A stretch of DNA of 64,000 nucleotides from Waddlia chondrophila WSU 86-1044 (GTDB taxonomy: Bacteria > Chlamydiota > Chlamydiia > Chlamydiales > CAMCWV01). Where the stretch lies: NCBI GenBank assembly GCA_945882915.1, contig CAMCWV010000005.1, positions 18,647 to 82,646 of the forward strand. The letters run 5' to 3'. Positions 5,443 to 48,532 of the stretch are shown here, piece by piece. A program made the position numbers and the translations under genes. Numbering within the stretch: position 1 is the first letter of the stretch; the number at the start of each line of letters is the position of its first letter. The notes beneath the pieces are model-generated. The model did not search any database, was not told the origin of the DNA, and saw only the letters and a list, made by a program, of their open reading frames with translations.

Positions 5443-6222
5443 CTAAGACCCAATCTGCTGTGCTATTGGCGCTATAGTGACATAAGCAACAGGTATTGCG
5501 TTCCCAGATGCTGGCGAATTACTTGCTAGAAAAATCGCATGAGCAGATTTAATAACATCCCCTGTAGCATTCACTATAGAAAAGGTTGTTCCTTTAGCGG
5601 TGTCAAACAACACCGAGATTGAGAGCATGTTTTCATCTGAGGCTATCAGAAGTTGACTGCCATCAAGAATCGTATCGCCCTGTTTAATTGCAACAGCTCC
5701 AGTGCCCCCTTTTAAGTCTAATGCCACTCCATAGTGAATCATATACAGCCCTTGAGGCAGCGTAAACACACCATCTTTATAAGAAATGCCACCACTAAGA
5801 GTTTGGGTGGGAAATAATATAGTAGCATTGTCCTCAACAGAGGTGCCTCCAACCTTAAGGAAAGCATGCCCATGCTGAGCGGTGACTGGAACAGGTGAAG
5901 GTCCAGCCGGTCCGGTTGCGCCCGCTGGACCTTTGGCTCCCACTGGACCTGTGGCCCCCGTTAGACCTGTGGCTCCCGTTAGACCTGTGGCTCCCGTTAG
6001 ACCTGTGGCTCCCACGGCACCTGTGGCTCCCGTTAGACCTGTGGCTCCCACTGGACCTGCTGGCCCCTGTATTCCTGGAGGGCCCGGGGGGGGGCACTTT
6101 TTGCAGGAGAAAATGTCATCTATAAGGGATGATCTAAGCGGTGTTTTTTCATCAGCAATCGCGTTTGATATCGGAGCGGAAATCAACAATGCGGCCACAG
6201 TCGCTAAAAGTACTCTAACCAT
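5443..6222 (-). CDS. secreted collagen-like (G-X-Y)n protein with a C1q/BclA-like C-terminal globular domain
   Basis: Signal peptide [21 protein letters not shown]. About 24 uninterrupted G-X-Y triplets ([22 protein letters not shown]...). The C-terminal [16 protein letters not shown] resembles the C1q jelly-roll signature. Confidence 0.85.
5924..6067. repeat. 18-nt tandem array (8 units, 3 consecutive perfect copies of gttagacctgtggctccc) inside the collagen-like gene
   Basis: Direct reading. Units start at 5924, 5942, 5960, 5978, 5996, 6014, 6032 and 6050. Confidence 0.9.
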
Positions 6223-6435: not shown

Positions 6436-6680
6436 CTTGACAGCGTTTAGCTTAGCGCCCGCTTAAGGAGCGAGCGGCAGCGTTGCTCTTTGGAGTGCTG
6501 GGACAAGTCCAACGCTTTGTTAGGACTCGACCTGTCGAGTCCACTGAACCTTAGCAAGCGAACCTGTGTGTCTGCCCCTCGACATGTCGAGGGCTGGTGA
6601 AAGCGTTGGACATGTCCCAGCACTCCAAAGAGTTCGCTTCGCTCACTCCTTAAACCCAACTGAGTTAAACGTTATCTGCC
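6436..6680. repeat. F2 element, copy b, with extended ends
   Basis: gcttgacagcgtttagc...cttaaggagcgagc...ctttggagtgctgggac ... gtcccagcactccaaagag...ctccttaa...gttaaacgtt. Flanked by 25-bp direct repeats at 6410-6434 and 6708-6732. Confidence 0.85.
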
Positions 6681-6718
6681 AGCTCTATTTTTTAAAGTAA
6701 GAGTCCCAGCGCTGTAAT

Positions 6719-6752
6719 TATATACTCCTCGTAGTTGAAAACGGGAATTTGG
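6719..6752 (+). repeat. F1 left-end fragment, fused to an F4 element
   Basis: tatatactcctcgtagttgaaaacgggaatttggg, then the sequence switches to F4. Confidence 0.8.
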
Positions 6753-6845
6753 GCCACCTAAGGTCTGGGATTCAGATGGAACCAACGCAAACGTTTGTTA
6801 ATGGGCAGTCTATAATCCCAGGGCGGGACGCCCTGGTTACACACT
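6753..6845. repeat. F4 element (partial)
   Basis: ccacctaaggtctgggatt...aacgtttgttaatgg...cccagggcgggacgccctgg is similar to 49975-50118. Confidence 0.6.
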
Positions 6846-7026
6846 AAAGACAAATGGGCTGTCAGGATGGGCGTAAATAACTTATTTAAAATGTTTTAAA
6901 TAAAAAAATAGTTTGCAAAAATCACACTATTTGGTTATCATTTAGCCAGCTTTTGTAAAACCCGCCTATTCTTTTGAAAAGTCGTGTTACAAAGTTCTTT
7001 TACACCCACACACAAAGTGAACAAAC

Positions 7027-8322
7027 ATGACTTTCAAAGATTTAGACGACGCAGCCAAAGACACTATCAAGCAAGAGACAACTAAACAAGACACAACCGG
7101 CGTAACTTTCAAAGATTTGAACCTAGCCCCCGGTATTCTTAAAGTCCTCGAAGAAATCGGCTACGAAAAACCAACTCCTATTCAAGAGCAAGCCATTCCA
7201 AAGATCCTAGAAGGTCTTGACATCCGCGCTTCTGCCCAAACAGGAACTGGCAAAACAGCCGCCTTTATTCTCCCTACATTAAACAAACTAATGGGCCCAA
7301 CAACCCTAACAGGCAGAGGCCCTCGCGTTCTTGTTTTAGTTCCTACACGCGAACTTGCATTGCAAGTAGCCGCCGAAACAATCAAGTACAGCAAGTACCT
7401 CTCTCGCATGAGAACTGTTTGTATTTTTGGAGGCGCACCCTACCCGATCCAAAACAGAGAGCTTTCTCGCCCTTACGAGATCCTCGTTGCAACACCTGGC
7501 CGCCTCATTGACCATCTTGAGCGCGGACGCATCGACTTCTCACGTTTAGAGATGCTCATCCTCGATGAAGCTGACCGCATGCTCGATATGGGGTTCATCG
7601 ATCCTGTAGAACAAATTGCTGCAGCAACTCCTAGATCACGTCAAACATTGATGTTCTCTGCAACCCTTAAAGGGAGCGTAATGAACCTCTCTAGAAGCCT
7701 TCTAAAGAACCCAATCGACATCAGCGTTACTGCCGACACTGTAAAACACGAAAACATCGAACAACGCCTTCATAACGTCGATGGCCTCGATCACAAAAAC
7801 CGTCTTCTAGACCATATTTTAAGCGATCCTACGATCAACCAAGCAATCGTCTTCACCTCAACAAAGCACCATGCTGACCAGCTCGTAGACCAACTCTACA
7901 GCCAAGGGCACCATGCAGCAGCACTTCATGGCAACATGAACCAGCGTCAACGCACACGAACAATCACGGAACTCCGTCAAGGAAAAATCCGCGTTCTCGT
8001 TGCAACAGACGTTGCTGCAAGAGGAATTGACGTTCAAACAATTACTCACGTTATCAACTTTGACCTGCCAAACAACGCAGAAGACTACGTTCACCGCATT
8101 GGCCGTACAGGACGTGCCGGCGCTAACGGAATCGCTCTTTCATTCGTTGCTTCTAAGGATCAGCAGTCGATCAGACGCATTGAGCAGTTTACTGGCCAAA
8201 AGATTACCGCCCACGTAATCCCAGGCATGGAGCCTTCCCTCAAGCTAAGATCACGAGCAAACCCTTCAACAAGAAACGGCCAAAAGCCAAGATTCTTCGC
8301 CAACAGAAGATCTTCTTACTAA
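7027..8322 (+). CDS. DEAD-box ATP-dependent RNA helicase (RhlE-like)
   Basis: Motifs AQTGTGKT, PTRELA, DEAD (LDEADRM), SAT and HRIGRTGRAG. Confidence 0.92.
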   Translation: MTFKDLDDAAKDTIKQETTKQDTTGVTFKDLNLAPGILKVLEEIGYEKPTPIQEQAIPKILEGLDIRASAQTGTGKTAAFILPTLNKLMGPTTLTGRGPRVLVLVPTRELALQVAAETIKYSKYLSRMRTVCIFGGAPYPIQNRELSRPYEILVATPGRLIDHLERGRIDFSRLEMLILDEADRMLDMGFIDPVEQIAAATPRSRQTLMFSATLKGSVMNLSRSLLKNPIDISVTADTVKHENIEQRLHNVDGLDHKNRLLDHILSDPTINQAIVFTSTKHHADQLVDQLYSQGHHAAALHGNMNQRQRTRTITELRQGKIRVLVATDVAARGIDVQTITHVINFDLPNNAEDYVHRIGRTGRAGANGIALSFVASKDQQSIRRIEQFTGQKITAHVIPGMEPSLKLRSRANPSTRNGQKPRFFANRRSSY

Positions 8323-8366
8323 AATAATAAGCTTTCGAAAGGAAGCTTATTAGAAGTTCAACATGA

Positions 8367-8407
8367 CTGCTACCGAAGCCTCACCGCTTTGGTAGCAGTT
8401 TTTTTTT
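8367..8407 (+). terminator. intrinsic terminator after the helicase gene
   Basis: 12-bp stem ctgctaccgaag/ctttggtagcag (one G-T pair) followed by T9. Confidence 0.8.
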
Positions 8408-8526
8408 GCCCCACAGGCTTAAAATATAATTTGACATCTCAAAGGATTAGACTTACTATTTAATTAAGTGGTGGATCTAACTTGGCATTGCTGTATAATT
8501 ATTTGTTTGATTATTCTTTATTCTTT

Positions 8527-8580
8527 CTGTGTCTCTGCGTTTCAAATATTTTAATATTAAATTTTTGAAACACAGATGCG
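8527..8580. repeat. F3 small AT-rich palindrome
   Basis: ctctgcgtttcaaa-N-tttgaaacacaga. A related copy lies at 38809-38852, with a partial match at 31118-31134. Confidence 0.55.
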
Positions 8581-8620
8581 TAATATGTACTCCTCGGTGA
8601 CGATCGGCAAAGGAATATTT

Positions 8621-10333
8621 ATGGTTCAGAAAGTTACCACCGGCGGCGACAAAATCATTCAGTGCCTCGAACGCGAGGGCGTGGAGGTCGTGTTCGGCTA
8701 CTCCGGCGGCGCCGCGATGCCGATCTTCGACGCGCTGGTCGATTCGCGCATCAAGTTCGTGCTCGTCAGGCATGAACAGGGAGCCACCCATATGGCCGAT
8801 GGCTACGCCCGCGCCACAGGCAAGCCTGGCGTCGTTCTGGTGACGTCGGGCCCGGGCGCAACCAACTGCGTCACGGGACTGCTCACGGCGCTGATGGACT
8901 CGGTGCCGATGATCGTGCTCACCGGCCAGACCATCACCTCAATGCTCGGCAAGGACGCCTTCCAGGAAGCGGACGTGACCGGCATCACATATCCAGTCGT
9001 GAAGCACAGTTATCTGGTCAAGAACGCCGATGATATTCCGCGCGTCATGAAGGAAGCCTTTCATATCGCCACCACGGGAAGGCCTGGACCGGTGCTGATC
9101 GACCTGCCGAAGGACATCACCCAGGGACCATGCACGGCGCCATTTATCGACACAGTAAACCTGCCGGGCTACTATGTGCCTGCCCATCCCGACAGCGCGC
9201 TGCTGTGCAAGACCGCCAGCCTCCTGATGAAGAGCCGCAAGCCAGTGCTGTACGTGGGCCACGGCGCCGTGATCTCGAATGCCGGCGCGGCGATTCTGGA
9301 ACTGGCAAAGGCACTCAACGCACCGATCGTCAACACGCTGCTCGGTAAGGGCGCGTGCGCGGAGGATCACCCGCTGCACTTGGGCATGCTCGGCATGCAC
9401 GGGACGGCCTACGCCAACCGGACAGTGGAGCACTGTGACCTGATCATGGCAATTGGCGCGCGGTGGGACGACCGCATCACGGGCAAGCTCTCGGGATTCT
9501 GTCCCGACGCGGTCAAGATTCATATCGACATCGACGTGGCGGAGTTCAACAAGGTGGTCCGTCCCGATGTGACCATGGCCGCCGACGCGCGGCTGGCCAT
9601 CGAGGCACTAGTGCCACTAGTGGGGCCTCTCGACACGGCCGACTGGCTCAAAGAGATCGCCGGCTGGCGCAAGCAGTACCCACTGAAGTATGCCAAGAAG
9701 GGCGGCCTGCGCGCGCAATATGTCGTGGACCGGCTCGACAAGCTCGGCGGACGCGACTGCATCATCACGACCGACGTCGGCCAGCACCAGATGTGGGCGG
9801 CGCAGTTCTGTCTCACCACGAAGCACCGCCACTGGATCTCCAGCGGAGGCGCCGGGACGGTGGGGTTCGGATTTCCAGCGGCAATTGGCGCGGCCATGGC
9901 AACAGGTAAACCCGTCTGGGCCATCGTCGGCGACGGCGGCTTCCAGATGACCCTCTGCGAGCTGGCTACCGCGAAGCTCCAGAAGGTGCCGGTGAAGATC
10001 CTGATCATCAATAACAGCTACCTGGGCATGGTTCGCCAGTGGCAGGAGCTCTTCTTCGATAACCGCATCTTAGGGGCGGACCTCGAGGGCAATCCTGACT
10101 TCATCAAGCTCGCTGCGGCCTACGACATTCCAGCCAAGCGCATTACACGCGCGGGCGACGTGGACAAGGCCATCAAGTGGGCGATGGCCTATAACGACGG
10201 ACCCTGCCTGATTGAGGCCGAGGTGGTGAAGGATGACAACGTCTTCCCGATGATCCCGAGCGGAGCACCACTCTCGGAAATGCTCACCGAGAAGCCGAAG
10301 GCCAAGATGAAGAAACCGACGGGGTCGACGTAG
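8621..10333 (+). CDS. ilvB: acetolactate synthase (AHAS) large subunit, ThDP-dependent; GC-rich foreign composition
   Basis: VFGYSGGA, RHEQGA.HMADGYAR, GPGATN and the ThDP motif GDGGFQM...NN. Start chosen at the ATG 8 nt after aaagga; the track ORF starts at 8576. Confidence 0.88.
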   Translation: MVQKVTTGGDKIIQCLEREGVEVVFGYSGGAAMPIFDALVDSRIKFVLVRHEQGATHMADGYARATGKPGVVLVTSGPGATNCVTGLLTALMDSVPMIVLTGQTITSMLGKDAFQEADVTGITYPVVKHSYLVKNADDIPRVMKEAFHIATTGRPGPVLIDLPKDITQGPCTAPFIDTVNLPGYYVPAHPDSALLCKTASLLMKSRKPVLYVGHGAVISNAGAAILELAKALNAPIVNTLLGKGACAEDHPLHLGMLGMHGTAYANRTVEHCDLIMAIGARWDDRITGKLSGFCPDAVKIHIDIDVAEFNKVVRPDVTMAADARLAIEALVPLVGPLDTADWLKEIAGWRKQYPLKYAKKGGLRAQYVVDRLDKLGGRDCIITTDVGQHQMWAAQFCLTTKHRHWISSGGAGTVGFGFPAAIGAAMATGKPVWAIVGDGGFQMTLCELATAKLQKVPVKILIINNSYLGMVRQWQELFFDNRILGADLEGNPDFIKLAAAYDIPAKRITRAGDVDKAIKWAMAYNDGPCLIEAEVVKDDNVFPMIPSGAPLSEMLTEKPKAKMKKPTGST

Positions 10334-10378
10334 CGGGCGCGGCGCCTCTTGTCCTTGTTTTTACTTTTCGAGGTTTTC

Positions 10379-10972
10379 ATGCCATTCAACACTGAAACGC
10401 GCGGCATCCAATTCGAATTCGATCCCGGAAAGCCCCCCCGTCGTCGGGAGGTCGCCGCGGCCGTCAAGCCGCCGCTCCACACGCTCTCGCTGCTTATGCG
10501 CAACAAACCGGGCGTCCTCGTGCGCATCTCGCTTGTCTTCTCGCGACGCGGCTATAACCTGGAGTCGCTGGTCTTGTCGCCGGCGCTCTCCGTCGAGGGC
10601 ATGGACGCGATGCCTGGAGAGTTCTCGCGGATGACGATCACCTGCTCGGGGGATCCCGATAGGCTCGAGCAGATCATCAAACAGATCGAGAAGCTGATCG
10701 ACGTGGTGCATGCCATCGATTACACGGGCAAAGCGGTGATCGAAACCGAAGTGGTCCTCGTGAAACTCAAGGCCAGCCTGAGCGGGCGCACCGAGATTCT
10801 CCAGATCGCCGAGAGCTTCAAGGCGACTGTCGGGGACTTCGGGTTGGAGTCGGTCATCCTCCAGTGCGCGGCGGAGACCGAGAAACTCGACGTGTTCATC
10901 GCGCAGCTCACCCCCTTCGGCATCATCGATCTGGTGCGCTCAGGCAAGATCCTGATGATATACTCCTCGTAG
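10379..10972 (+). CDS. ilvN: acetolactate synthase small (regulatory) subunit with ACT domain; the last codons and the stop lie inside an F1 element
   Basis: HTLSLLMRNKPGVLVRISLVFSRRGYNLESL is the ACT signature of IlvH/IlvN. The gene ends ..ATG ATA TAC TCC TCG TAG within the F1 terminus. The start is uncertain (10349 or 10379). Confidence 0.8.
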   Translation: MPFNTETRGIQFEFDPGKPPRRREVAAAVKPPLHTLSLLMRNKPGVLVRISLVFSRRGYNLESLVLSPALSVEGMDAMPGEFSRMTITCSGDPDRLEQIIKQIEKLIDVVHAIDYTGKAVIETEVVLVKLKASLSGRTEILQIAESFKATVGDFGLESVILQCAAETEKLDVFIAQLTPFGIIDLVRSGKILMIYSS

Positions 10973-11123
10973 CTGAAAATGGGAACTTGGACGGCGCCAA
11001 AGCCCCGGGGCTGAACGATCGCAAGCGCCCTTTGTATTTCTAATACTAAGGCACTTGCGATCGTTCAGCCGCGGGAGCTTTCGCGCTAGTGCAAATTCCC
11101 GTTTTCAACTACGAGGAGTATAT
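10958..11123 (+). repeat. F1 element, long form (about 166 bp)
   Basis: Full imperfect palindrome with central loop ctttgtatttctaatactaa. Confidence 0.9.
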
Positions 11124-11285
11124 ACTCCGCTTAGCTGAAAATGGGAACTTGGACGGCGCCAAAGCCCCGGGGCTGAACGATCGCAAGGGCCCTTTGTATT
11201 TCTAATACTAAGGCACTTGCGATCGTTCAGCCGCGGGGCTTTCGCGCTAGTGCAAATTCCCGTTTTCAACTACGAGGAGTATATA
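11119..11285 (+). repeat. F1 element, long form, head-to-tail with the previous copy (shared TATAT)
   Basis: Near-identical to 10958-11123. The left end is the GCTTA variant and the right end the CTACG variant. Confidence 0.9.
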
Positions 11286-11388: not shown

Positions 11389-13215
11389 TCACTTCTCCAG
11401 CTGCTTATCGAAGCTCACCTTCGTTTCTTCATAAAGAAGTGCGAGCTGCTCTAATTCAGCAAAAAGCAAATCAAGCTTTCTTTTCTTATCGTCGATAGTC
11501 CTCGAAAGCGTTGCAATTGCAAGGCCATCTCCCTTTTGAGAAAGGGCTATGAGATCATGAACGGCTTTCTCGTTTTCTTGATCGAGTGCCATAACTTCAG
11601 CTTCAATCCGGTCCATCTTCTTCTGAATCGGCTGTAGAGCCTTTGATTTGCTATTAATAAGCTCTGTCCGCTTTTGTTTATTTTCACGCCGCTCTTCTGG
11701 CTTGAGCTTTACTTTTACCGCCTTCTCACTCCCCTGCTCCCAACCTTCTTTCTCCAAGAATTCCTCATACCCTCCCAAGAAAAGATGTTGATTTCCTTGA
11801 TGGCAGATCACAAACTTTGAAGGGACTTGCCGCAAAAACATTTCACTGTGGGTTACAATAACAACTGCCCCTTCAAATGAATCTAGGGCCATTAAAAGCG
11901 CCTCGATAGACTCCATGTCCAAGTGGTTCGTCGGCTCATCAAGCAGCAGCAGGTTGCAAGGAGTTGCGAGGATTTTCCCTAAGAGAACGCGGCTGCGCTC
12001 ACCTCCAGACAGCACAGAGATCTTTTTCTTTGCGTTATCATCAGAAAACATCATGATCCCGCAAATCCCCCTAACCTCCGTAAAGGTCATTCCAGGACGA
12101 ACAGAGGCGATCTCCTCTTCCACTGTCATATTAGGGCGAAGACGTTCAATGTTCGTTTGTCCAAAATAACCAATCTTCGCGTTATTTGAAGCCCTAACAG
12201 TGCCCTGATCAGGCTCAAGCTCCTGAGCAATAAGACGGAGAAATGTCGACTTTCCACGCCCGTTTTTTCCAACAACTGCAATCCGGTCATTCTTTTCAAT
12301 CCGAAGACTAAAATTCTGAATAATAGGAGTCTCGCGCTCATAGGCAAACGAGACCTCATTCACCTCCAAAAGCTTCTCTCCGGGTAAAGGGGCATACGAA
12401 AAATCAAAATCGAGATGGTGAAGCTGGGCAAGCTGTTCCAAAACAGGCATTCTTCCAATGGCTTTGGTCCTAGAGCGCGCCTGCCCCGCCTTACTTGCTT
12501 TTGCCCCAAAACGATCAACAAACGACTGGAGATGGTCTCTTTTTTTCTCCATATTCATGCGCGTCCGCTCATAGATCTCTTCTTCTTGTAAGAGCTGGGT
12601 GTAGAATTTCTCTGTTCCCCCCTCAGTCTTACGGATCCCTTTTCGATGAACTCCGAGTGTGTGCGTTGTCACGCTATCCATGAATTCGCGATCGTGGGAG
12701 ATAATAATCAGCTCGCCTTTCCAGCTGCGCAAAAACCGACCAAACCAGCGGACAGAAACAATATCAAGGTAGTTTGTAGGTTCATCCAAAAGTAGACAGT
12801 CAGGCTCACCAACAAGCACCTTTGTAAGATGAATACGGAGCTGATATCCCCCAGAAAACTTCGCAGGAGAGGCGTAAAGATCCTCTTCCTTAAATCCTAG
12901 ACCAAAAAGGATCTTCTCTACTTTATGCAGCTGGTCTTCATCCTGCGGGCGCAAACCTAAAGCCGCCTCTTGAAGCACTGTCTCTTGGGTGAACTTAAGA
13001 TGCTGATTCAAGTATCCAATCGAATAAAACTTAGGCGCAGAAATTATTCCCCCATCAGGCTTTTCTTCTCCGGTAATCATTCGCAAAAGGGTTGTCTTTC
13101 CTGAACCGTTACGCCCTATCAGGCCACACCGCTCTCCCTTATTTAACTTAAATGAGAGCCCTTCGAGGACCGTCTCCCCCATGTAGCTCTTGTTTAACCC
13201 TTCAACCTGAATCAT
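11389..13215 (-). CDS. ABC-F family ATPase (two ABC domains, C-terminal coiled coil)
   Basis: Two Walker A motifs (GRNGSGKTT, GKNGRGKST) and two signatures (FSGGYQLR, LSGGERSR). No membrane domain. Confidence 0.9.
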   Translation of the reverse strand: MIQVEGLNKSYMGETVLEGLSFKLNKGERCGLIGRNGSGKTTLLRMITGEEKPDGGIISAPKFYSIGYLNQHLKFTQETVLQEAALGLRPQDEDQLHKVEKILFGLGFKEEDLYASPAKFSGGYQLRIHLTKVLVGEPDCLLLDEPTNYLDIVSVRWFGRFLRSWKGELIIISHDREFMDSVTTHTLGVHRKGIRKTEGGTEKFYTQLLQEEEIYERTRMNMEKKRDHLQSFVDRFGAKASKAGQARSRTKAIGRMPVLEQLAQLHHLDFDFSYAPLPGEKLLEVNEVSFAYERETPIIQNFSLRIEKNDRIAVVGKNGRGKSTFLRLIAQELEPDQGTVRASNNAKIGYFGQTNIERLRPNMTVEEEIASVRPGMTFTEVRGICGIMMFSDDNAKKKISVLSGGERSRVLLGKILATPCNLLLLDEPTNHLDMESIEALLMALDSFEGAVVIVTHSEMFLRQVPSKFVICHQGNQHLFLGGYEEFLEKEGWEQGSEKAVKVKLKPEERRENKQKRTELINSKSKALQPIQKKMDRIEAEVMALDQENEKAVHDLIALSQKGDGLAIATLSRTIDDKKRKLDLLFAELEQLALLYEETKVSFDKQLEK

Positions 13216-15675: not shown

Positions 15676-16734
15676 TTATGCAGAGCAGAGTTCGCTCTCG
15701 CAGCTTGGTTCGCCTGCCTCAGCTTCTTCTTGCTTCTGAGGCTTAGAAAAGTCAGCTTCGTGCCAAGGGTAACTATTTAGCAACTCAAGAATTTCAGGAA
15801 TCGACTTTGAACGGTTGATCGACTCGCGAAGACCCCGAACACCCTGTCCATTGCGCAGGAACCAGCAACCTACTCTTCGGGTGTCAAATATCGCCTTACG
15901 CTCATCCTGATAGGCGATGATGTGCTGCACGTGCTCTAAAAGTGCATCTCTGAAGTGAATTGCTGTACGTGTTATGGGAGGCTCTCCAGCAAAATGGCGA
16001 TGGATATCTTCGATAAGCCAAGGCTGTCCCATCATCCCGCGCGCTAGCAAGATCGCATCACAACCGGTATCGATAAAGATTTTTTCAGCACTTTGAACAT
16101 CCACAATGTCCCCATTACCAATGACTTTAATGTTCTTTGCCACTTGCTTACACTCGCGGATATAATCCCACACTGCCGGCCCTTTATAGCCTTGAGAGCG
16201 CGTTCTGCCATGAATACAAATTGCTGCTGCGCCCGCCTCTTCCGCAATGCGGGTCACCTGCGGAGCTACGATGCTATTAGCATCCCATCCCACGCGGATC
16301 TTGACGGTGACAGGGATCTTTACAGCTGCGACCATATTCGAGATGATCTCTCCGATTAGGTCGGGATTTTTAAGCATTCCAGAGCCGCTTCCATCCTTTG
16401 TGACCTTATCGACTGGACAGCCGCAGTTTAAATCAACGACGTCAAAGCCCAAGTCTTCAATGATTTTGGCACACTCGGCTGCAAGTTCTGGCTTGCTGCC
16501 GCAAAGCTGCCCGCCAATAGGGTGCATAGAGGGGTCAAAGTCGAGGTAGCGGTAGGTCCCGGGATGATTACGCACTAGAGCGTCCATCTTGACCATTTCA
16601 CAGTAGACAAGGCCAGGCTGATACTTAACTGCCATCTTCCGGAAAGGGACGTCGGAGCAACCTGCCAAGGGGGCGCAGAAGACATTGGAAGGCAAAGAAA
16701 GGTTGCCAAGAGAGAAGGGGCGCTTTAAAGACAT
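15676..16734 (-). CDS. dus: tRNA-dihydrouridine synthase (DusB-like); the start codon is embedded in an F1 terminus
   Basis: CAPLAGCSDVPFR, DLNCGCP and IHGRT motifs. The 5' context on the coding strand is ctAGGAGtatATG. Confidence 0.88.
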   Translation of the reverse strand: MSLKRPFSLGNLSLPSNVFCAPLAGCSDVPFRKMAVKYQPGLVYCEMVKMDALVRNHPGTYRYLDFDPSMHPIGGQLCGSKPELAAECAKIIEDLGFDVVDLNCGCPVDKVTKDGSGSGMLKNPDLIGEIISNMVAAVKIPVTVKIRVGWDANSIVAPQVTRIAEEAGAAAICIHGRTRSQGYKGPAVWDYIRECKQVAKNIKVIGNGDIVDVQSAEKIFIDTGCDAILLARGMMGQPWLIEDIHRHFAGEPPITRTAIHFRDALLEHVQHIIAYQDERKAIFDTRRVGCWFLRNGQGVRGLRESINRSKSIPEILELLNSYPWHEADFSKPQKQEEAEAGEPSCESELCSA

Positions 16735-16899
16735 ATACTCCTAGTAGCTGAAAATGGGAACTTGGACGGCGCCAAAGCCCCGGGGCTGAACGATCGCAAG
16801 TGCCCTTTGTATTTCTAATACTAAGGCACTTGCGATCGTTCAGCCGCGGGAGCTTTCGCGCTAGCCCAAATTCCCGTTTTCAACTACGAGGAGTATATA
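16733..16899 (+). repeat. F1 element, long form
   Basis: Full palindrome, followed by a further left-end fragment at 16895-16910. Confidence 0.9.
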
Positions 16900-18138: not shown

Positions 18139-18549
18139 ATGTCTCAAGGTGTTTTTGATGGAAAAAAGCTCGTTTTATCAGAAAAAGAATGGAAGGCTCT
18201 ACTAAGTCCTAAACAATTTGCTGTTTTGCGTGACAACGGAACAGAGCCACCATTTAGGAACGAATACTGTGCCAACCACCAAAAAGGTGTTTACCTCTGC
18301 GGCGGCTGCTCCCTTTCTTTGTTTAGCTCAGAAACAAAATTTGACTCTGGCACAGGATGGCCAAGTTTTTGGGCGCCGATCAATGAACAAAACGTCTCAT
18401 GCCAAAAAGACAACAAGCTTGGCATGACAAGAACGGAAGTTCATTGCAGCAGATGCGAAGGGCATCTTGGTCACGTTTTTGATGACGGGCCAAAGCCTAC
18501 AGGAAAGCGGTACTGCATGAACTCCGCCGCCTTAAAATTTCAAAAATAA
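18139..18549 (+). CDS. msrB: peptide-methionine (R)-S-oxide reductase
   Basis: GTGWPSF and RYCMNS motifs, with two CxxC zinc pairs. AGGAGG lies 5 nt before the ATG. Confidence 0.9.
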
Positions 18550-18669
18550 AAGGTCTGTTATCTTCCTGGGATAGACTCGTAGCTGATTTTTTTGTCTGAG
18601 AGCTCAAAGAGCAACGCTATCGCTTAGCTTCGGACGCCTCCCACGTTGAAAGCGAAGTTGTTCGTCTGG

Positions 18670-20931
18670 TTAGCGCATGAGGTTTAGCGCTGAGCCAGCT
18701 TTAAACCAAGCGACCTGATCCCCGTTCATCGTGTGCTTTACTAGCACCTTATCCTCACTGCCATCACTGTGTTTAAAGATGACTGTTAAATCCTTAGCAG
18801 GAGCCAGAGCTGCTAGATTGATAATGCTCACCCTATCATCTTCACGCGCTTTATCATAATCCGCAGGGTTAACGAAAACTAAAGGAAGAACCCCTTGCTT
18901 TTTCAGGTTAGTTTCGTGAATGCGGGCAAATGACCTCACAATAACCGCAGCAGCCCCCAGAAAACGTGGAGACATCGCCGCATGCTCGCGAGAGCTCCCC
19001 TCACCATAGTTTTCATCTCCAATAGCCACCCAACGAAGCCCCTCAGCTTTGTATTCACGGGCCACCTTCTGAGGCTCCGAATACTCACCTGTCAGCTGAT
19101 TTTTAACACTCCCCGGCTTGTCATTAAACGCTGAGACAGCACCCAAGAACATGTTATTCGAAATGTTATCTAGGTGTCCTCTGTACTTCAGCCATTTACC
19201 CGCAGGGCTAATATGGTCTGTGGTGCATTTCCCCTTTGCTTTAAGAAGTAGTGGCAAGGCGCTATAATCCTTACCATTCCACGCCTTTAAGGGTTCTAAG
19301 AGCTGTAATCTTTCTGACTTTGGATCCACCACAATCTGAATCTTTCCCCCATCAACAGCCGGAGCCTGATAGCCAACATCTGCCGGCGCAAACCCATTTC
19401 TTGGCAAGTCGTCGACAACAGGAGGCGCTTTCAATCTAATCCTAACACCGCCACCCGCCTCAAATTCATCCTTCAAGGGATTGATATCCAAACGACCCGC
19501 TAAGGCATAAGCCATAACCACTTCAGGCGAGCCAATAAAGCTCATCGTCGCATTGTTCCCATCGTTGCGCGCAGGGAAGTTACGGTTGTAACTGGAGATG
19601 ATCGAGTTGACCTCGCCTGGTTTAATATCATCGCGCTTCCACTGACCAATACAAGGGCCACAGGCGTTAGCCATGACTGTTGCTCCTGCTTTTTCAAGGC
19701 TTTCCATTTGGCCATCCCGTTTGATGGTCTGGAAAATCATTTCACTTCCTGGCGTAATCATCAGAGGCGTCTTCGTCTTCGCCTTCTTCTCAACAGCCTG
19801 GCGTGCTACATCCGCTGCTCTGGAGATGTCCTCGTACGAACTGTTCGTGCAGCTCCCAATCATCGCCGCCTTAAGCACAACGTCGTACCCCTTTGCTTTT
19901 GCATCCGCTGCCATCTGAGAAACCGGTCTAGCCAGATCTGGCGTGTGCGGCCCTACGACATAAGGCTCAAGAGTGTCGAGGTCAATCTCAACAACTCTGT
20001 CATAATACTTTTTCGGGTCAGCTTCACACTCTCTATCTGGCTCAAGTAGATCGACATTCTTATCGGCAAGATCAGCTATCTCTGCACGCTTAGTGGCACG
20101 CAAATATCTTCCCATCGAGAGGTCATAGGGGAAAAGTGAAGTGGTCGCCCCAATTTCTGCTCCCATATTCGTGATTGTCCCCTTTCCCGTGCAACTCAAA
20201 GTGCGAGCCCCAGGGCCGATGTATTCGATAATAGCGTTTGTGCCGCCACTAACTGTAAGCACTTGAGCCACCTTAAGAATGATATCCTTAGGAGAGCTCC
20301 AGCCGCCGAGCTTCCCCGTAAGGAAAACAGCGATGCGTTTGGGATGCTTCACAACCCAAGGCATGCCAGCCATCACATCGACAGCGTCAGCGCCGCCAAC
20401 ACCGCAAGCCACCATTCCAAGGCCCCCAGCATTTGGCGTATGTGAATCTGTTCCAATCATCATCCCGCCCGGAAAGGCATAATGCTCAAAAACCACTTGA
20501 TGAATGATGCCCGATCCTGGCCTCCAGAATCCGATCCCAAATTTTTGCGAAGCTGAAGCTAAAAAGTTATAGACCTCTTTGTTCACATCATTAGCAGCAG
20601 CAAGATCTTTGACAGCCCCCTCATGAGCCTGGATCAGATGGTCACAGTGAATTGTTGAAGGAGCCTTAACTCTTGCAATCTCTGCCTGCGTGAACTGCAA
20701 AATAACCATCTGAGCAGTTGCGTCTTGCATGGCAATTCGGTCTGGGCGCAGCTCTAAAAACCCATCTCCCGGCTTCAGCTCCTGGCTTTTAGGTTTGTCA
20801 AGATGACCAAAGAGGATCTTTTCGCTAAGAGTGAGCGGGCGTCCTAACCGTTTCCGAATAACCTCAAGGTTCTTACGAATAGTCGCATAGACATTTTCTA
20901 CCATTTCAGGGGTCGTTTCAACAGTAAGCAT
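18670..20931 (-). CDS. acn: aconitate hydratase, about 750-aa mitochondrial-type
   Basis: RPLTLSEKILFGHLD N-terminus, Fe-S cysteines (..GSCTNSS.., ..NACGPCIGQW..) and length clearly shorter than AcnA/AcnB. Start at the ATG after ggaga. Confidence 0.9.
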   Translation of the reverse strand: MLTVETTPEMVENVYATIRKNLEVIRKRLGRPLTLSEKILFGHLDKPKSQELKPGDGFLELRPDRIAMQDATAQMVILQFTQAEIARVKAPSTIHCDHLIQAHEGAVKDLAAANDVNKEVYNFLASASQKFGIGFWRPGSGIIHQVVFEHYAFPGGMMIGTDSHTPNAGGLGMVACGVGGADAVDVMAGMPWVVKHPKRIAVFLTGKLGGWSSPKDIILKVAQVLTVSGGTNAIIEYIGPGARTLSCTGKGTITNMGAEIGATTSLFPYDLSMGRYLRATKRAEIADLADKNVDLLEPDRECEADPKKYYDRVVEIDLDTLEPYVVGPHTPDLARPVSQMAADAKAKGYDVVLKAAMIGSCTNSSYEDISRAADVARQAVEKKAKTKTPLMITPGSEMIFQTIKRDGQMESLEKAGATVMANACGPCIGQWKRDDIKPGEVNSIISSYNRNFPARNDGNNATMSFIGSPEVVMAYALAGRLDINPLKDEFEAGGGVRIRLKAPPVVDDLPRNGFAPADVGYQAPAVDGGKIQIVVDPKSERLQLLEPLKAWNGKDYSALPLLLKAKGKCTTDHISPAGKWLKYRGHLDNISNNMFLGAVSAFNDKPGSVKNQLTGEYSEPQKVAREYKAEGLRWVAIGDENYGEGSSREHAAMSPRFLGAAAVIVRSFARIHETNLKKQGVLPLVFVNPADYDKAREDDRVSIINLAALAPAKDLTVIFKHSDGSEDKVLVKHTMNGDQVAWFKAGSALNLMR

Positions 20932-20965: not shown

Positions 20966-21132
20966 ATATACTCCTCGTAGTTGAAAATGGGAATTTGGAC
21001 TAGCGCGAAAGCTCCCGCGGCTGAACGATCGTAAGTGCCTTATTATTAGAAATACAAAGGGCACTTGCAATCGTTCAGCCCCGGGGCTTTGGCGCCGTCC
21101 AAGTTCCAATTTTCAGCTACGAGGAGTATATA
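20966..21132 (-). repeat. F1 element, long form, inverted orientation
   Basis: Arms and loop (ttattattagaaatacaaagg) are the reverse complement of the 10958 copy. Confidence 0.9.
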
Positions 21133-27039: not shown

Positions 27040-27114
27040 ATATACTCCGCTTGGCTGAAAACGGGAGCTTTCGCGCTAGTCCAAATTCCCGTTTTCAAAT
27101 AGGAGGAGTATATA
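27040..27114. repeat. F1 element, short form
   Basis: atatactccgcttggctgaaaacggg...ccaaattcccgttttcaaataggaggagtatata. Confidence 0.85.
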
Positions 27115-27690
27115 AAAGACCACACCTCTTGTCAGCGCTGCAAATGGGTCCCTGAAGGCAATCCACTCTACGAAGCTTATCACGACACTGAATGGGGCGT
27201 TCCTGTTCACGATGACAGAACGCATTTCGAATTCTTAATTCTTGAAGGGGCGCAGGCTGGACTTAGCTGGCTGACACTCCTTAAAAGGCGCGAAGGCTAC
27301 CGCAAGGCATTTGCTGGCTTCGATCCAAAGAAGGTGGCTGCCTACGACGATACTAAGATCGCTGAGCTACTCGCCTTTGAAGGGATCATCCGCAACAAGC
27401 TTAAAGTTGCTGGCGCAGTAGTGAATGCAAGGCTTTTTCTGGAGATTCAAAAGGAGTTTGGGAGCTTTGATAAGTACATCTGGCGGTTTGTTAACGGAAA
27501 AACCATTCGAAATAAACGAGAGACCATTAAAGATCTGCCCACAGAAACCGCAGAGTCGCAGGCGCTAAGCAAGGACTTGAAGAAAAGAGGCTTTAAGTTC
27601 GTTGGCGGGGTGATCATGTACGCCCACATGCAAGCAACAGGGCTTGTTAATGACCACACCGTGGACTGCTTCCGCTACAAACAGGTCTAA
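27112..27690 (+). CDS. tag: DNA-3-methyladenine glycosylase I with no canonical start codon (the frame opens inside the F1 element)
   Basis: CQRCKWV..NPLYEAYHD.EWGVP...EGAQAGLSW...GLVNDH matches Tag along its full length. An in-frame TAG sits at 27100. No ATG, GTG or TTG occurs before the conserved N-terminal Cys motif. ATA at 27112 lies 5 nt after AGGAGG. Confidence 0.65.
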   Translation: MKDHTSCQRCKWVPEGNPLYEAYHDTEWGVPVHDDRTHFEFLILEGAQAGLSWLTLLKRREGYRKAFAGFDPKKVAAYDDTKIAELLAFEGIIRNKLKVAGAVVNARLFLEIQKEFGSFDKYIWRFVNGKTIRNKRETIKDLPTETAESQALSKDLKKRGFKFVGGVIMYAHMQATGLVNDHTVDCFRYKQV

Positions 27691-34893: not shown

Positions 34894-35060
34894 TATATAC
34901 TCCTCGTAGCTGAAAATGGGAACTTGGACGGCGCCAAAACCCCGGGGCTGAACGATTGCAAGTGCCCTTTGTATTTCTAATACTAAGGCACTTACGACCG
35001 TTCAGCCCCGGGAGCTTTCGCGCTAGTCCAAATTCCCGTTTTCAACTACGAGGAGTATAT
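34894..35060 (+). repeat. F1 element, long form
   Basis: Full palindrome. Confidence 0.9.
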
Positions 35061-37980: not shown

Positions 37981-38500
37981 TTATGAACACAAGTGAACAG
38001 TTCTTTTAAAATATACATCACTAGGGCAGTGATAGTCCAAAGACTGGAGCAATCTCTCGTTATTGTAGAAACGAAAATACCTACCAATGCCCTCTCGAGC
38101 CATTTTTAAAGACTCATAACTCTTTAAATAAATATCTTCATACTTCAAAGACCGCCACACGCGCTCTAGTATGCCTGTAAAGGCTAAACTCGTAAATTGC
38201 ACGCCCTGATCCGTATTGAAAATCTCTGGTTTCCCATTCTTCAAGGCCTCTTCAAGAGCCTCAATACAAAACCCGGCATCAAGTGTATTTGATCCAGTGC
38301 GCGGCAAACCCCGCCCTAAAGGACGGGGTTTGCCGCGCACTGGATCAACTGTAGATTATAGACCGTTTCCTCGGGAGGCTCCAGGTAATAGGAGGAGCGG
38401 TTTAACCCTAAAAGTCGACATTGATGAGCAAGAGAAAAATCTTGGTCAGCAATGTCGACGACAGCCCAACGCTCTTTTAGAGCTAAAGTCCAAGTTTTTT
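37981..38500 (-). pseudogene. IS3-family OrfB (DDE integrase) remnant; the N-terminal part of the catalytic core is missing
   Basis: HTH part (FSLAHQCRLLGLNRSSYYLEP) and C-terminal rve part (NTDQGVQFTS...YNNERLLQSLDY) are separated only by a 56-bp palindrome. Confidence 0.7.
38291..38346. repeat. 56-bp near-perfect palindrome (27-nt arms, one mismatch, 2-nt loop) at the OrfB deletion point
   Basis: gatccagtgcgcggcaaaccccgccct aa aggacggggtttgccgcgcactggatc. Confidence 0.9.
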
Positions 38501-38739
38501 TTAAGCCAATCAATCTCTATGGTTAATTGACCTACCTTGCGTTCCAAATCAGCTTTTACAGATTCTGCGTCTGTTCCTTTCTTGGATTGTCGTTCGAAAA
38601 GAGACTCTGCGCCATCTAACAATGCTTTTTTCCATTGAGCAACTTGCAAGGGATGAATCCCATATTGCCGCGCGATCTCATTTACAGTCCGTTCAACCTT
38701 CAGCGCTTCAATGGCAACTTTTTTCGTAACAGTCCACAT
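38446..38739 (-). CDS. IS3-family transposase OrfA (HTH plus leucine zipper)
   Basis: VNEIARQYGIHPLQVAQWKK..., coiled-coil tail. gaaggagg lies 3 nt before the ATG. Confidence 0.75.
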   Translation of the reverse strand: MWTVTKKVAIEALKVERTVNEIARQYGIHPLQVAQWKKALLDGAESLFERQSKKGTDAESVKADLERKVGQLTIEIDWLKKNLDFSSKRALGCRRHC

Positions 38740-38808
38740 ACCCCTCCTTCGTCGGTGCATGTGAACTGTTACAAACTTTTTTGTATTTTCTCTCACGTTC
38801 TCTATGCC

Positions 38809-38852
38809 TCTGTGTTTAAAAAAATGGTATTAATATTTTTGAAACACAGAGA
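38809..38852. repeat. F3 small palindrome
   Basis: ctctgtgttt aaaaaaatggtattaatattt ttgaaacacagag. Related to 8527-8580. Confidence 0.55.
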
Positions 38853-40213: not shown

Positions 40214-40296
40214 TGGGGACGGCTGGATTCGAACCAACGAACTCGTAAGAGAAGAGATTTACAGTCTCTCGCAATTGGCCACTCTGCCACATCCCC
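40214..40296 (-). tRNA. tRNA-Tyr (GTA), long variable arm
   Basis: Cloverleaf read by hand: acceptor GGGGATG/CGTCCCC, anticodon loop ctGTAaa, T-loop GGTTCGAATCC. Confidence 0.9.
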
Positions 40297-40314
40297 AAAA
40301 CTAGAAAAAAAATT

Positions 40315-40387
40315 TGCTGGCGAAAGGATTCGAACCCTCGACCGGCCGATTACAAATCGGCTGCTCTACCAACTGAGCTACACCAGC
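40315..40387 (-). tRNA. tRNA-Thr (TGT)
   Basis: Acceptor GCTGGTG/CGCCAGC, D-loop AGCTCAGTTGGTAGAGC, anticodon loop ttTGTaa, T-loop GGTTCGAATCC. Confidence 0.9.
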
Positions 40388-40463
40388 ATATATACTCCTC
40401 TTAGTTGAAAACGGAAGCTTTGGCGCTAGCCCAAATTCCCGTTTTCAACTAAGAGGAGTATAT
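40388..40463. repeat. F1 element, short form, abutting the 5' end of tRNA-Thr
   Basis: atatatactcctcttagttgaaaacgg...ccaaattcccgttttcaactaagaggagtatat. Confidence 0.85.
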
Positions 40464-44289: not shown

Positions 44290-44456
44290 TATATACTCCT
44301 CGTAGCTGAAAATGGGAAATTGGACGGCGCCAAAGCCCCGGGGCTGAACGATCGCAAGTGCCCTTTGTATTTCTAATACTAAGGCACTTACGATCGTTCA
44401 GCCGCGGGAGCTTTCGCGCTAGTCCAAGTTCCCATTTTCAGCTACGAGGAATATAT
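44290..44456 (+). repeat. F1 element, long form; its right end supplies the SD and part of the ATG of the next gene
   Basis: Full palindrome ending gctacGAGGAatatAT|G. Confidence 0.9.
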
Positions 44457-45066: not shown

Positions 45067-45166
45067 TATACTCCTCGTAGCTGAAAACGGGAATTTGGGC
45101 TAGCGCGAAAGCTCCCAGGGCTTTGGCGCCGTCCAAATTCCCGTTTTCAGCTACGAGGAGTATATA
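45067..45166 (-). repeat. F1 element, medium form (about 100 bp)
   Basis: Both termini plus gggctagcgcgaaagctcccagggctttggcgccgtcc. Lacks the central loop segment. Confidence 0.85.
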
Positions 45167-45407: not shown

Positions 45408-45480
45408 GGGCGTATAGCTCAGTTGGTAGAGCTCCTGTCTTACACACAGGTGGTCATAGGTTCGAGCCCTGTTGCGCCCA
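45408..45480 (+). tRNA. tRNA-Val (TAC)
   Basis: GGGCGTATAGCTCAGTTGGTAGAGC, anticodon loop ctTACac, GGTTCGAGCCC, acceptor closes with TGCGCCC-A. Confidence 0.9.
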
Positions 45481-45558
45481 TTGCTTGTAAAGCATGCTGT
45501 TTTAAACAGTTTACTTTGCAAGTACTATTCGAAAGCTTGCAAAGCAGGCGACTTTTTT

Positions 45559-45632
45559 GCGGGAGTAGTTCAATTGGTTAGAGCACCGGCTTGTCACGCC
45601 GGAAGTTGCGGGTTCAAGTCCCGTCTCTCGCG
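45559..45632 (+). tRNA. tRNA-Asp (GTC)
   Basis: GCGGGAGTAGTTCAATTGGTTAGAGC, anticodon loop ttGTCac, GGTTCAAGTCC, acceptor CTCTCGC-G. Confidence 0.9.
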
Positions 45633-46737: not shown

Positions 46738-46819
46738 GCCTTCTCAAGGGTCTGGGCATTAGTACAGCGCTAATTTTGCATTATAAAAGCAGTCAAAAGA
46801 ACTTATTAAAGTGAGTTTT

Positions 46820-48532
46820 ATGATCCGAGGAACGCCACCTGCTGTTGGAGCTCACACTATCCTTAAAGAGCTTGGGCAGGATGGCTTTGGTATCGTTTAT
46901 GAAGCGCAAGACGAGAAAAAACAGCCCATCCTGCTCCGAGTGATTGCTCCGGAAATTTCTAATAACGACAACTTTGTCGTCCGCTTTGAATTGCTAAAAG
47001 CCATCCTCCCCTCAATAGAGCATAAAAACCTTCTTAAAGTAATTGAGCTCGGATCTCATAAAAACATCTTCTTTATTGCTAAAGAGCGCCCTGGGGTAGA
47101 CGGCAAAGCCTTAAATGCGAGCCTACAGACGCTAAATTCATTCGACTTCACAAACACCTCTAGCAACACTCTTGGACGGCACCGCACACTACTTGAGCTC
47201 TTTGAAGGAATTGCTCAAGGGCTCTCTGCCCTTGAGCAGGTGCGCAAAAGCTATTACAAACATGGGATCCTCCACAACAGCTTAAAACCCGATAACATTT
47301 ATATTTTTTCTAACTCCGCGCAAGGAATTCTGTCTCAAGGCACCCCAAGTCCTAAGCTAGATGGTTATGCGGAGCCGTTTTTGTTTTTTGGAGACGGTCC
47401 ACAGTCGCTTCTTCACTATCGAATGGCAACGCCTCTAGCTACTGCTAAAAGACTTAATCAAGAAAAGAACGGGATCCAAAGCAGTCCTCTTAATTTATAC
47501 GGCTATGAACCATTTTACCCGCCGGAATCTCGTCAAGGACTCCCCCTGCACCCCACCTCTATGCAGTATGCTTTTGGAGCTCTTCTTTACCACCACATTA
47601 GCAAACAACATCCAAAAGGGTTGTTTATTCCGCTCAAAGAGCATGACGGCTCTTTAGACCCTCTTTGGGATGAAATCGTCAACCGATGCCTAGCCTCTCC
47701 TCATGGTGGCGGTTATGCGAATATGGGAGAGGTTGCTGGACATCTAAAAAAACAACTCGTCTCTCATCTAGAGCTTTCTCCTGAAGAGAAGAAAATAAAA
47801 AGTATTAAGCCGCCTGCTGGAATGGCACTTGTCGCCTGTTTAGAAAAAGTTGAGATCGGCGCTCATGATGGCCCCGAGAATGAACAGCCCCCCTTCCGGA
47901 TGCGCATCAAGCCATTTTTTATGGATATCTTCCCTGTAACGTTTAAGCAATTTAAAGAGTGCATGCCTCTTTACACGGGCAGTGACTATTCGAGGGGAGA
48001 CAACCTCCCCGCTACACTAATTTCAATCTCTATGGCCAAGGCCTACTGCAGATGGAGAAGCGAAAAAGAAGGGCTGCCACCGCAAACCTACCGTCTGCCA
48101 ACAGAATATGAGTGGGAAGCTGCTGCCAGAGGACAAGGAGGGCTCCAGTATCCGTGGGGAGCTACACAAGATCCCCTTCAGCTCTATTGCAATAAAGACA
48201 AAGAACGAGGAACAATTGCATTAGGACAGCTACCTGCCGGCAGATTTGGCCTTCATGACATGCTAGGAAATGTGTGGGAATGGACAGATTCACTATTTCA
48301 CCCCCACCCCTTTGCAAAGGGAGCTGAAAAGCCTGTATCGCCTAAGCTACACGTCGCAAAAGGCGGGTGCTGGCTCACTCCCCTCGAGCTCTGCAGAGGC
48401 AGTCTCAGGCAAGGCTTTGCCCCACACGAGCCAAAAGCAAACATCGGATTCCGCTGCGCCCGGAACGTCGATTATATACTCCTCGCAGCTGAAAATCGGC
48501 ATCTGGACGGCGCCAAAGCCCCGGGGCCTTAG
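46820..48532 (+). CDS. Pkn1-like fusion: N-terminal protein-kinase-like domain (catalytic motifs degenerate) plus C-terminal FGE/SUMF1-type domain; the last ~20 codons are F1-derived
   Basis: Kinase-like LGQDGFGIVYEA, LLRVI, HNSLKPDN and LDGYA. FGE motifs RLPTEYEWEAAARG, GNVWEWT and GFRCAR. The tail DYILLAAENRHLDGAKAPGP is encoded by the F1 element. Confidence 0.8.
   Translation: MIRGTPPAVGAHTILKELGQDGFGIVYEAQDEKKQPILLRVIAPEISNNDNFVVRFELLKAILPSIEHKNLLKVIELGSHKNIFFIAKERPGVDGKALNASLQTLNSFDFTNTSSNTLGRHRTLLELFEGIAQGLSALEQVRKSYYKHGILHNSLKPDNIYIFSNSAQGILSQGTPSPKLDGYAEPFLFFGDGPQSLLHYRMATPLATAKRLNQEKNGIQSSPLNLYGYEPFYPPESRQGLPLHPTSMQYAFGALLYHHISKQHPKGLFIPLKEHDGSLDPLWDEIVNRCLASPHGGGYANMGEVAGHLKKQLVSHLELSPEEKKIKSIKPPAGMALVACLEKVEIGAHDGPENEQPPFRMRIKPFFMDIFPVTFKQFKECMPLYTGSDYSRGDNLPATLISISMAKAYCRWRSEKEGLPPQTYRLPTEYEWEAAARGQGGLQYPWGATQDPLQLYCNKDKERGTIALGQLPAGRFGLHDMLGNVWEWTDSLFHPHPFAKGAEKPVSPKLHVAKGGCWLTPLELCRGSLRQGFAPHEPKANIGFRCARNVDYILLAAENRHLDGAKAPGP

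Follow-up and report, generated by a model that had tools for sequence, protein, structure and literature searches.

Probable acquisition of an Acidobacteriota-type ilvB–ilvN gene pair, bounded by termini of a host repeat, in a member of the Chlamydiota

In a 64,000-nt stretch of a chlamydial contig (CAMCWV010000005.1, positions 18,647–82,646; hereafter the window), we analysed an islet of high-GC DNA that carries ilvB and ilvN, the genes for the two subunits of acetohydroxyacid synthase (AHAS). The composition, phylogeny and DNA homology of the islet agree and therefore support horizontal acquisition, and we hold with high confidence that this gene pair was transferred into a Chlamydiota bacterium from a Vicinamibacteria-type donor within the Acidobacteriota, of high GC content. 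Our full account, to which we give a probability of roughly 0.6, is that the acquired pair is edged by a host miniature inverted-repeat transposable element (MITE), here termed F1, and most likely makes AHAS. Both horizontal transfer into Chlamydiota and acetolactate synthases in chlamydiae are already on record, and the islet is no new type of system. What is new here is the donor lineage, the boundaries at base level, the MITE-defined junctions and the faster protein evolution since the split from the donor lineage. The islet itself comprises the following features.

8607–10957, plus strand: putatively donor-derived DNA, 62% GC, delimited by a blastn match to the contig L002, with weaker similarity to donor upstream DNA leftward to ~8597.
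8621–10333, plus strand: ilvB, large subunit of biosynthetic-type acetolactate (acetohydroxyacid) synthase, 570 amino acids (aa), TIGR00118.
10379–10972, plus strand: ilvN, regulatory small subunit of AHAS, 197 aa, TIGR00119.

The GC content of the islet (8621–10957) is 61.9%, compared with 46.0–46.7% for the rest of the window. A 1-kb GC profile stays at 0.40–0.53 across the window except at 9001–11000, where it reaches 0.59–0.63, and a 150-nt profile climbs from 0.31 (8475–8624) to 0.61 (8625–8774) and drops below 0.50 again past ~11250. We then considered the open reading frames (ORFs) of at least 100 aa in the window (n = 55, including ilvB and ilvN). The GC content at third codon positions (GC3) was 0.81 for ilvB and 0.83 for ilvN, against a mean of 0.454 (standard deviation 0.053, maximum 0.58) for the 53 other ORFs, which corresponds to z-scores of 6.8 and 7.1. 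The islet is thus unlike its host in composition and like the donor contigs described below (GC3 0.84–0.92), and nothing else in the window or the fetched host contigs exceeds 57% GC, save a collagen-repeat gene that stands at that value. Antisense ORFs of 104–194 aa occur throughout the islet; such spurious ORFs are expected in high-GC DNA. The original prediction, made from the letters of this DNA, had described a sharp composition jump, third codon positions dominated by G and C and an abundance of spurious long ORFs. The sliding profiles, the GC3 values and the antisense ORFs bear out all three, and its four hand counts proved exact (61.7% at 8641–8700, 66.7% at 9721–9780, 26.7% at 8461–8520 and 53.3% at 7441–7500). 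A plasmid search with the islet returned only 43–98-nt matches to ilvB of unrelated bacteria, and no plasmid vehicle is indicated.

Relatives of the IlvB protein were sought among 5.8 billion proteins, and the best 120 homologues were used. The closest are one identical protein, one at 94% identity (P0002) and a series at 91–88% whose named members are metagenome-assembled genomes (MAGs) labelled Vicinamibacterales and Acidobacteria, followed by relatives at 87–79% from MAGs labelled Planctomycetes and Polyangia. All fetched contigs of the donor type have 62.6–67.7% GC. In a scan of GTDB genomes with IlvB, the best among the matches listed was an 83% 'Planctomycetota' MAG, and the 88–94% relatives were not among them. 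Because the MAG labels within the IlvB clade disagree, the closest contig, L002, was classified through a flanking gene, a DUF5916 gene whose named relatives are all Acidobacteriota (Luteitalea, Vicinamibacterales and 'Acidobacteria'). L002 (62.6% GC) gave a single blastn match to the window, 89.3% identical over 2351 nt (window 8607–10957). In a neighbour-joining tree of 46 sequences, the window IlvB is sister to P0002 and nested in a clade with the Vicinamibacterales sequence P0010, and its terminal branch measures 0.0315, twice the 0.0151 of P0002. On the donor contigs the ilvB–ilvN pair likewise stands alone, with different neighbours each time and an IlvN of 200 aa, and a fragment of just these two genes is therefore natural in that setting. 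On L085, a contig of a Vicinamibacterales MAG, a phage-type integrase gene (18461–19570) lies ~6 kb downstream of ilvBN and is probably unrelated to the transfer.

This phylogeny conflicts with that of the host, which belongs with the Chlamydiota. Host ribosomal protein S1 (61945–63795) is 60–62% identical to its counterparts in Protochlamydia, Parachlamydiaceae and 'Chlamydiales' MAGs and 46–47% identical to those of other phyla, with no database match between 63% and 100% identity; judged by this protein, the host is a member of the Chlamydiota without a close sequenced relative. The right flank carries rpsA-nusA-infB-rbfA-truB-ribF, and ~10 kb of host DNA beyond the window has nusA-infB-rbfA-truB-ribF-mutS.

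Some chlamydiae do encode acetolactate synthase (PMC9666466), and we therefore weighed whether ilvBN could be an old high-GC chlamydial gene pair inherited vertically, or one passed in the reverse direction from chlamydiae to Acidobacteriota. Either course is extremely improbable. The window sequence forms one long tip within a large clade, all sampled contigs of which are high-GC, its GC3 of 0.82 fits those genomes (0.84–0.92) and not the host (0.45), and none of the 120 best IlvB matches is named chlamydial. No vertically inherited homologues of similar composition, which the original prediction had named as grounds for giving it up, were found. Its claim of horizontal acquisition gains support from the nearest relatives, which lie on high-GC Acidobacteriota-type contigs among unrelated neighbours. 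Its claim that the acquisition was recent stands in a relative sense: GC3 is essentially unameliorated, which points to a fairly recent transfer, but the closest known relative of the donor is separated from the islet by a synonymous divergence (dS) of 0.41, and the databases do not contain the true donor.

The junctions of the islet could be placed to the base, and the features that flank it are these.

7027–8322, plus strand: host DEAD-box RNA helicase gene, left neighbour, 48% GC, with NCBIfam matches of the CsdA/SrmB/RhlE type.
8583–8596, plus strand: remnant of an F1 MITE terminus, ATATGTACTCCTCG, matching the terminus consensus at 13 of 14 bases and oriented as the terminus at 10958.
10958–11123, plus strand: F1 MITE copy 1, ~164 nt, a near-perfect hairpin (repeat search and DNA fold).
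11120–11285, plus strand: F1 MITE copy 2, not present in the otherwise 99.8–99.9% identical contig L084.
11282–11306, plus strand: solo F1 terminus, a partial third copy.
11389–13215, minus strand: host ABC-F ATPase gene, right neighbour, with NCBIfam ABC-F matches; in the same place in L084.

Homology to donor DNA begins ~14–24 nt before the ilvB start codon and ends exactly at the MITE. On the left, weak homology to three donor upstream regions reaches back to ~8597 (GGTGACGATCGG); a reading of bases 8597–8612 as MITE interior was rejected in favour of this better alignment. On the right, the donor sequence would run on as GTGCGCGGGGCCGAAGAAACCTAG (VRGAEET*), and the window has the repeat terminus ATATACTCCTCGTAG (IYSS*) in its place. 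The ilvN stop codon TAG (10970–10972) thus lies inside the first F1 terminal repeat, the MITE replaces the last 7 donor ilvN codons, and in comparison with L002, L085 and L086 the seven C-terminal residues of the donor type are gone from IlvN. The donor 3' end of ilvN was not found beyond the repeats. The pattern ATATGTACTCCTCG has 16 other matches in the window, all of them genuine F1 termini, with 0.01 expected by chance. At the observed density of one F1 terminus per 1.7 kb, we estimate the chance that both junctions independently fall at most 10 nt from a terminus at roughly 1e-4, and it is therefore probable that MITE ends took part when the junctions formed or were cut back. Both edges accord with the original prediction, which had placed a palindrome of a second type (F3, at 8534–8576) and a degenerate F1-like terminus on the left and a double F1 array providing the ilvN stop codon on the right. 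Its wording that the islet was domesticated by host repeats is fair, as the MITE gives ilvN its C-terminus and stop and a terminus remnant sits at the left junction.

An abrupt composition step, with repeats of the classic misassembly kind at the right edge, could also arise if an acidobacterial fragment had been misjoined into a chlamydial contig. The protein cluster of the window IlvB has members on several other contigs, and three of these speak to the point. L001 (ERZ28613056, 4344 bp) is 99.98% identical to window 6659–11002 and joins the helicase gene to ilvBN and to the first 45 nt of the MITE; L083 (ERZ27280263, a 30-kb contig) has the same helicase–ilvBN–repeat arrangement; and L084 (ERZ27280265, a 56.7-kb contig) runs from the helicase gene through ilvBN, the MITE and the ABC-F gene and beyond. 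The helicase gene adjoins ilvB in all three, which are 99.8–99.98% identical to the window, come from other samples and carry at least two naming schemes. Since L084 spans both junctions and both host flanks, a chimera is very unlikely. Three further points argue against it: no repeat at the left junction is of a length that could misguide assembly, the islet has diverged from all its relatives in the databases (nucleotide identity 89.3% or less), and the ilvN reading frame is completed by a host MITE that the donor loci lack. The original prediction had counted chimeric junctions as fatal to it; examined at the level of assemblies, the same junctions recur in three others. Both genes are intact in all four assemblies, the sole difference within the islet being one single-nucleotide polymorphism in L001. 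To the right of ilvN, the MITE array has two copies in the window and one in L084 (10931–11117), which is 162 nt shorter here, reflecting either population variation or assembly collapse.

In its public annotation, L084 shows antisense ORFs of 104, 194, 162 and 116 aa at 8450–10684, and its intact ilvB is represented by no more than a 101-aa fragment; automated pipelines can therefore overlook or mis-annotate the islet.

F1 is ~164 nt long, has the terminal inverted repeats TATACTCC...GGAGTATA and, as single-stranded DNA, forms a nearly perfect hairpin (−71.5 kcal/mol, z = −16), as every full-length copy does. Its terminus matches the window 37 times, against 0 expected. The 64 kb hold 16 paired copies and 5 solo termini, which amount to 3.5% of the sequence; ten copies measure 161–182 nt, five 70–98 nt and one, degenerate, 261 nt (examples at 16734–16897, 20967–21130, 34896–35059, 44292–44455 and 60751–60914). 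Being short, non-coding, high in copy number and bounded by terminal inverted repeats, F1 qualifies as a MITE. Its flanks are often TA and its own ends are TATA, so that a target-site duplication is inseparable from the terminus; no cognate transposase was identified, no search aimed at one having been made. F1 was not present in any of the 82 non-host loci fetched, all donor loci among them, and therefore belongs to the host.

Two other host genes in the window have their 3' end and stop codon in an F1 copy, 58 nt inside it for the gene of an FGE-sulfatase-domain protein (46811–48532, plus strand) and 37 nt inside it for that of a PTPS-family protein (61157–61549, plus strand), and F1 therefore habitually provides genes with their ends. 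Rickettsia palindromic elements and MITEs of the Stowaway/IS630 type insert into or beside genes. In architecture, F1 resembles them in being short, non-coding, highly palindromic, high in copy number, often TA-flanked and equipped with terminal inverted repeats, and in forming part of ORFs, namely ilvN and these two host genes. It differs in that it has no Rfam match; at gathering thresholds, Rfam found four tRNAs only in the window.

These observations suggest how the islet may have been fitted into the host. A Chlamydiota bacterium would have acquired the two-gene ilvB–ilvN unit from a high-GC donor of the Vicinamibacteria type, and the foreign DNA now sits in the intergenic space between the DEAD-box helicase and ABC-F genes, with both of its ends coinciding with F1 termini. 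The junctions would have formed at MITE ends, or been cut back to them, through break repair or deletion between MITEs, leaving exactly two genes. In the simplest model, foreign DNA took the place of one copy in a tandem MITE array, of which only the first 14 nt remained; in another, deletion between MITE copies may have shortened a larger insert. A bolder proposal makes the hairpin MITE a general device for capture and fitting: breaks or recombination at MITE ends would have captured and trimmed ilvBN and added a stop codon and a terminator-like hairpin, and the captured AHAS would be active and supply a step that relatives of the host lack. We consider this proposal doubtful.

The predicted products of both genes are of the biosynthetic AHAS type. 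IlvB scores 718.6 bits against TIGR00118 (cut-off 538.35) and IlvN 139.1 bits against TIGR00119 (cut-off 56.9), with profile positions 3–154 of 158 matched. The N, M and C domains of thiamine diphosphate (ThDP) enzymes (PF02776, PF00205 and PF02775) are recorded for P0001, a protein identical to the window IlvB, and ACT and ALS_ss_C domains (PF01842, PF22629 and PF10369) for the identical ilvN product in L001. The translation of IlvB contains the ThDP–Mg motif GDG-X(24–27)-NN (VGDGGFQMTLCELATAKLQKVPVKILIINN) and the catalytic glutamate of HEQG (VRHEQGATHM). The conserved methionine of G(T/A)MGFG, present in all 119 closest homologues and in Arabidopsis thaliana AHAS, is not kept, the window IlvB reading GTVGFG. 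Among solved structures (PDB), the closest are plant and yeast AHAS at ~500 bits, compared with 217–235 bits for catabolic acetolactate synthases. Close IlvB homologues are all 570 aa long and start with MVQK or MLTK. The ATG at 8621, preceded by AAGGAA, gives the same length and represents the conserved start; the ATG at 8576 does not. IlvN, encoded directly downstream of ilvB, has an N-terminal extension of ~35 aa, as in the donor clade.

In known biosynthetic AHAS systems (IlvB/IlvN and IlvI/IlvH), the gene for a three-domain ThDP enzyme is likewise followed by that for an ACT-domain regulatory subunit. The islet shares this order, exceeds both family cut-offs and keeps the GDG...NN motif and the HEQG glutamate. 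It differs in standing alone in a chlamydia without ilvC or leu genes, and in its protein details: the methionine-to-valine change in GTMGFG, the N-terminal extension of IlvN and the four C-terminal residues encoded by the MITE. Catabolic acetolactate synthases (AlsS/BudB) share the conversion of pyruvate to acetolactate, but their operons (alsSD, budABC) have no regulatory subunit and adjoin alsD or budA. A catabolic acetoin operon was rejected for the islet: ilvN follows ilvB, and the 55 ORFs hold no AAL_decarboxy or butanediol dehydrogenase match. Pfam and NCBIfam scans of the same 55 ORFs found no ilvC, ilvD, ilvE, alsD or budC; the ~10 kb to the right of the window hold no ilv partner, alsD or butanediol dehydrogenase gene, and the extra left flank in L083 (~1.4 kb) no ilv gene. 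The original prediction that only the two AHAS subunits are encoded, with no ilvC, ilvD or ilvE nearby, is thus upheld. Its description of an orphan AHAS holds for these ~75 kb of host DNA and does not extend to the whole genome.

The sequence upstream of ilvB contains three candidate control elements.

8365–8400, plus strand: hairpin resembling an intrinsic terminator after the helicase gene, a 15-pair stem followed by TTTTTTT.
8431–8459, plus strand: sigma-70-like promoter candidate, TTGACA-17-TACTAT, matching the consensus at 10 of 12 positions, in host intergenic DNA of 29% GC.
8534–8576, no strand assigned: F3-type palindrome (TCTGCGTTTCAAA...TTTTTGAAACACAGA), whose arms match a palindrome at 38809–38850.

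The region 5' of ilvB therefore reads, in order, as helicase terminator, promoter candidate, F3 palindrome, MITE terminus remnant and donor ribosome-binding site. The pair would keep its donor ribosome-binding sites and may be expressed from the AT-rich, host-type promoter candidate. RNA folding of the ilvB leader (8460–8625) was no stabler than that of shuffled sequences (z = −1.1), and an attenuator is not supported. At the other end, the MITE hairpin starts 12 nt before the ilvN stop codon; it gives ilvN its stop and could also terminate transcription. Since both reading frames are intact, and the same in four assemblies, the product is most likely an AHAS holoenzyme dependent on flavin adenine dinucleotide and ThDP. 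The predicted enzyme would turn pyruvate into acetolactate, which could feed valine and leucine synthesis if ilvC, ilvD and ilvE lie elsewhere in the genome, or could become acetoin or diacetyl by spontaneous or enzymatic decarboxylation. Acetoin formation via acetolactate synthase has been proposed for some, sponge-associated, chlamydiae (PMC9666466), and a side reaction of AHAS can release acetaldehyde (PMC5613635).

The F3 palindrome had at first appeared unique, and its central 33-mer is, but this reading was rejected as the arms recur at 38809–38850 (4 arm matches in the window against 0.42 expected). The copy at 38809–38850 adjoins two short ORFs (37981–38796, minus strand) with the IS3-type transposase domains HTH_Tnp_1 and rve_3, which look like a broken insertion sequence; F3 may therefore be the end of an insertion sequence or a regulatory hairpin.

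We next asked how the genes have evolved. Between the islet genes and those of L002, dS is 0.41, non-synonymous divergence (dN) 0.034 and dN/dS 0.084, with no stops or frameshifts. With L085 and L086 as outgroups to polarise the changes, several results count against continued function or limit what can be said of the transfer. The window branch carries 100 nucleotide changes and the L002 branch 58 (p = 0.001), divided into synonymous and non-synonymous changes as 63/37 and 46/12, respectively (Fisher p = 0.034). Amino-acid changes are likewise more numerous on the window branch, in IlvB (20 versus 7, p = 0.019) as in IlvN (15 versus 3, p = 0.0075). The window IlvB has nine residues unique among 120 homologues, whereas eight control sequences have 0–3, and four of the nine (G188A, M414V, S484L and A547S) fall at positions conserved to 95% or more; at such positions no control has a unique residue. 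M414V is the GTMGFG-to-GTVGFG change; it keeps a hydrophobic residue at the position of the methionine that, in the AHAS of plants and yeast, props ThDP in the V-conformation. To these are added the loss of the last 7 donor-type residues from IlvN, the failure to find partner genes in ~75 kb of host DNA, and a promoter candidate that is a consensus match only, from which expression would have to be inferred. The amelioration test gave no enrichment of strong-to-weak changes specific to the chlamydial branch (ratio of strong-to-weak to weak-to-strong changes: window branch 62:12, L002 branch 42:4), and the islet GC3 is only 0.02 below that of L002. Amelioration thus appears barely begun, and the time of residence is therefore inseparable from divergence within the donor lineage.

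Taken together, these substitution patterns indicate that the chlamydial copy is still constrained and that its proteins evolve faster, through relaxed constraint or adaptation; it may be adapting or starting to decay. One explanation is that the transfer was real and the genes are a neutral passenger, useless to an intracellular host, in early decay and intact only because little time has passed. The excess of non-synonymous and amino-acid changes would fit, as would the unique substitutions at otherwise invariant positions (M414V among them), the exchange of the IlvN C-terminus for MITE sequence, the unseen downstream pathway genes and a short residence implied by the unameliorated GC3. Against this, 2.3 kb contain no stop or frameshift in any of the four assemblies, and dN/dS on the window branch, as estimated from the counts, is roughly ~0.2, far below 1. 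Moreover, the flanks are gone as far as the edges of the two genes, yet the genes themselves and their ribosome-binding sites remain, a pattern that selection for retention would produce, and since the ordinary host genes at 46811–48532 and 61157–61549 also end in MITEs, truncation alone is no sign of decay. We therefore regard a neutral passenger as unlikely, though clearly a stronger contender than a chimera or vertical descent, and lean slightly towards an ilvBN that is still functional.

Horizontally acquired islets are known from environmental chlamydiae, and the ilvBN islet resembles them in its foreign composition, its phylogenetic incongruence and its insertion between conserved host genes. 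It differs in being very small (2.36 kb, two genes), in having no integrase, tRNA target or conjugation genes, in being bounded by MITE termini and in a GC3 that is still donor-like. As inhabitants of eukaryotic cells, chlamydiae are often considered to have little opportunity for gene uptake; with donor codon usage intact and boundaries defined within a few bases, the islet is direct evidence that environmental chlamydiae still gain genes from free-living soil bacteria. A role of the MITE family is suggested by the junctions, and three window genes end in F1 copies, much as is seen with Rickettsia palindromic elements. An active enzyme would change the options of the host for pyruvate; if capture by MITEs also holds, this chlamydia gains an acetolactate-forming step that its relatives lack.

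Other features of the window were noted in passing. The gene at 5443–6222 (minus strand) encodes a collagen-triple-helix repeat protein (G-X-Y, 259 aa); L083 and L084 have 18 nt (6 aa) more, the repeat length being polymorphic among samples. A methyladenine glycosylase ORF (27334–27690, plus strand) covers only profile positions 64–177 of 177 and looks N-terminally short; a 72-nt MITE (27041–27112) lies just 5' of it, and the gene may be truncated or its start call wrong. Two pairs of tRNA genes (40214–40387, minus strand, and 45408–45632, plus strand) lie near short MITEs at 40391–40462 and 45067–45164.

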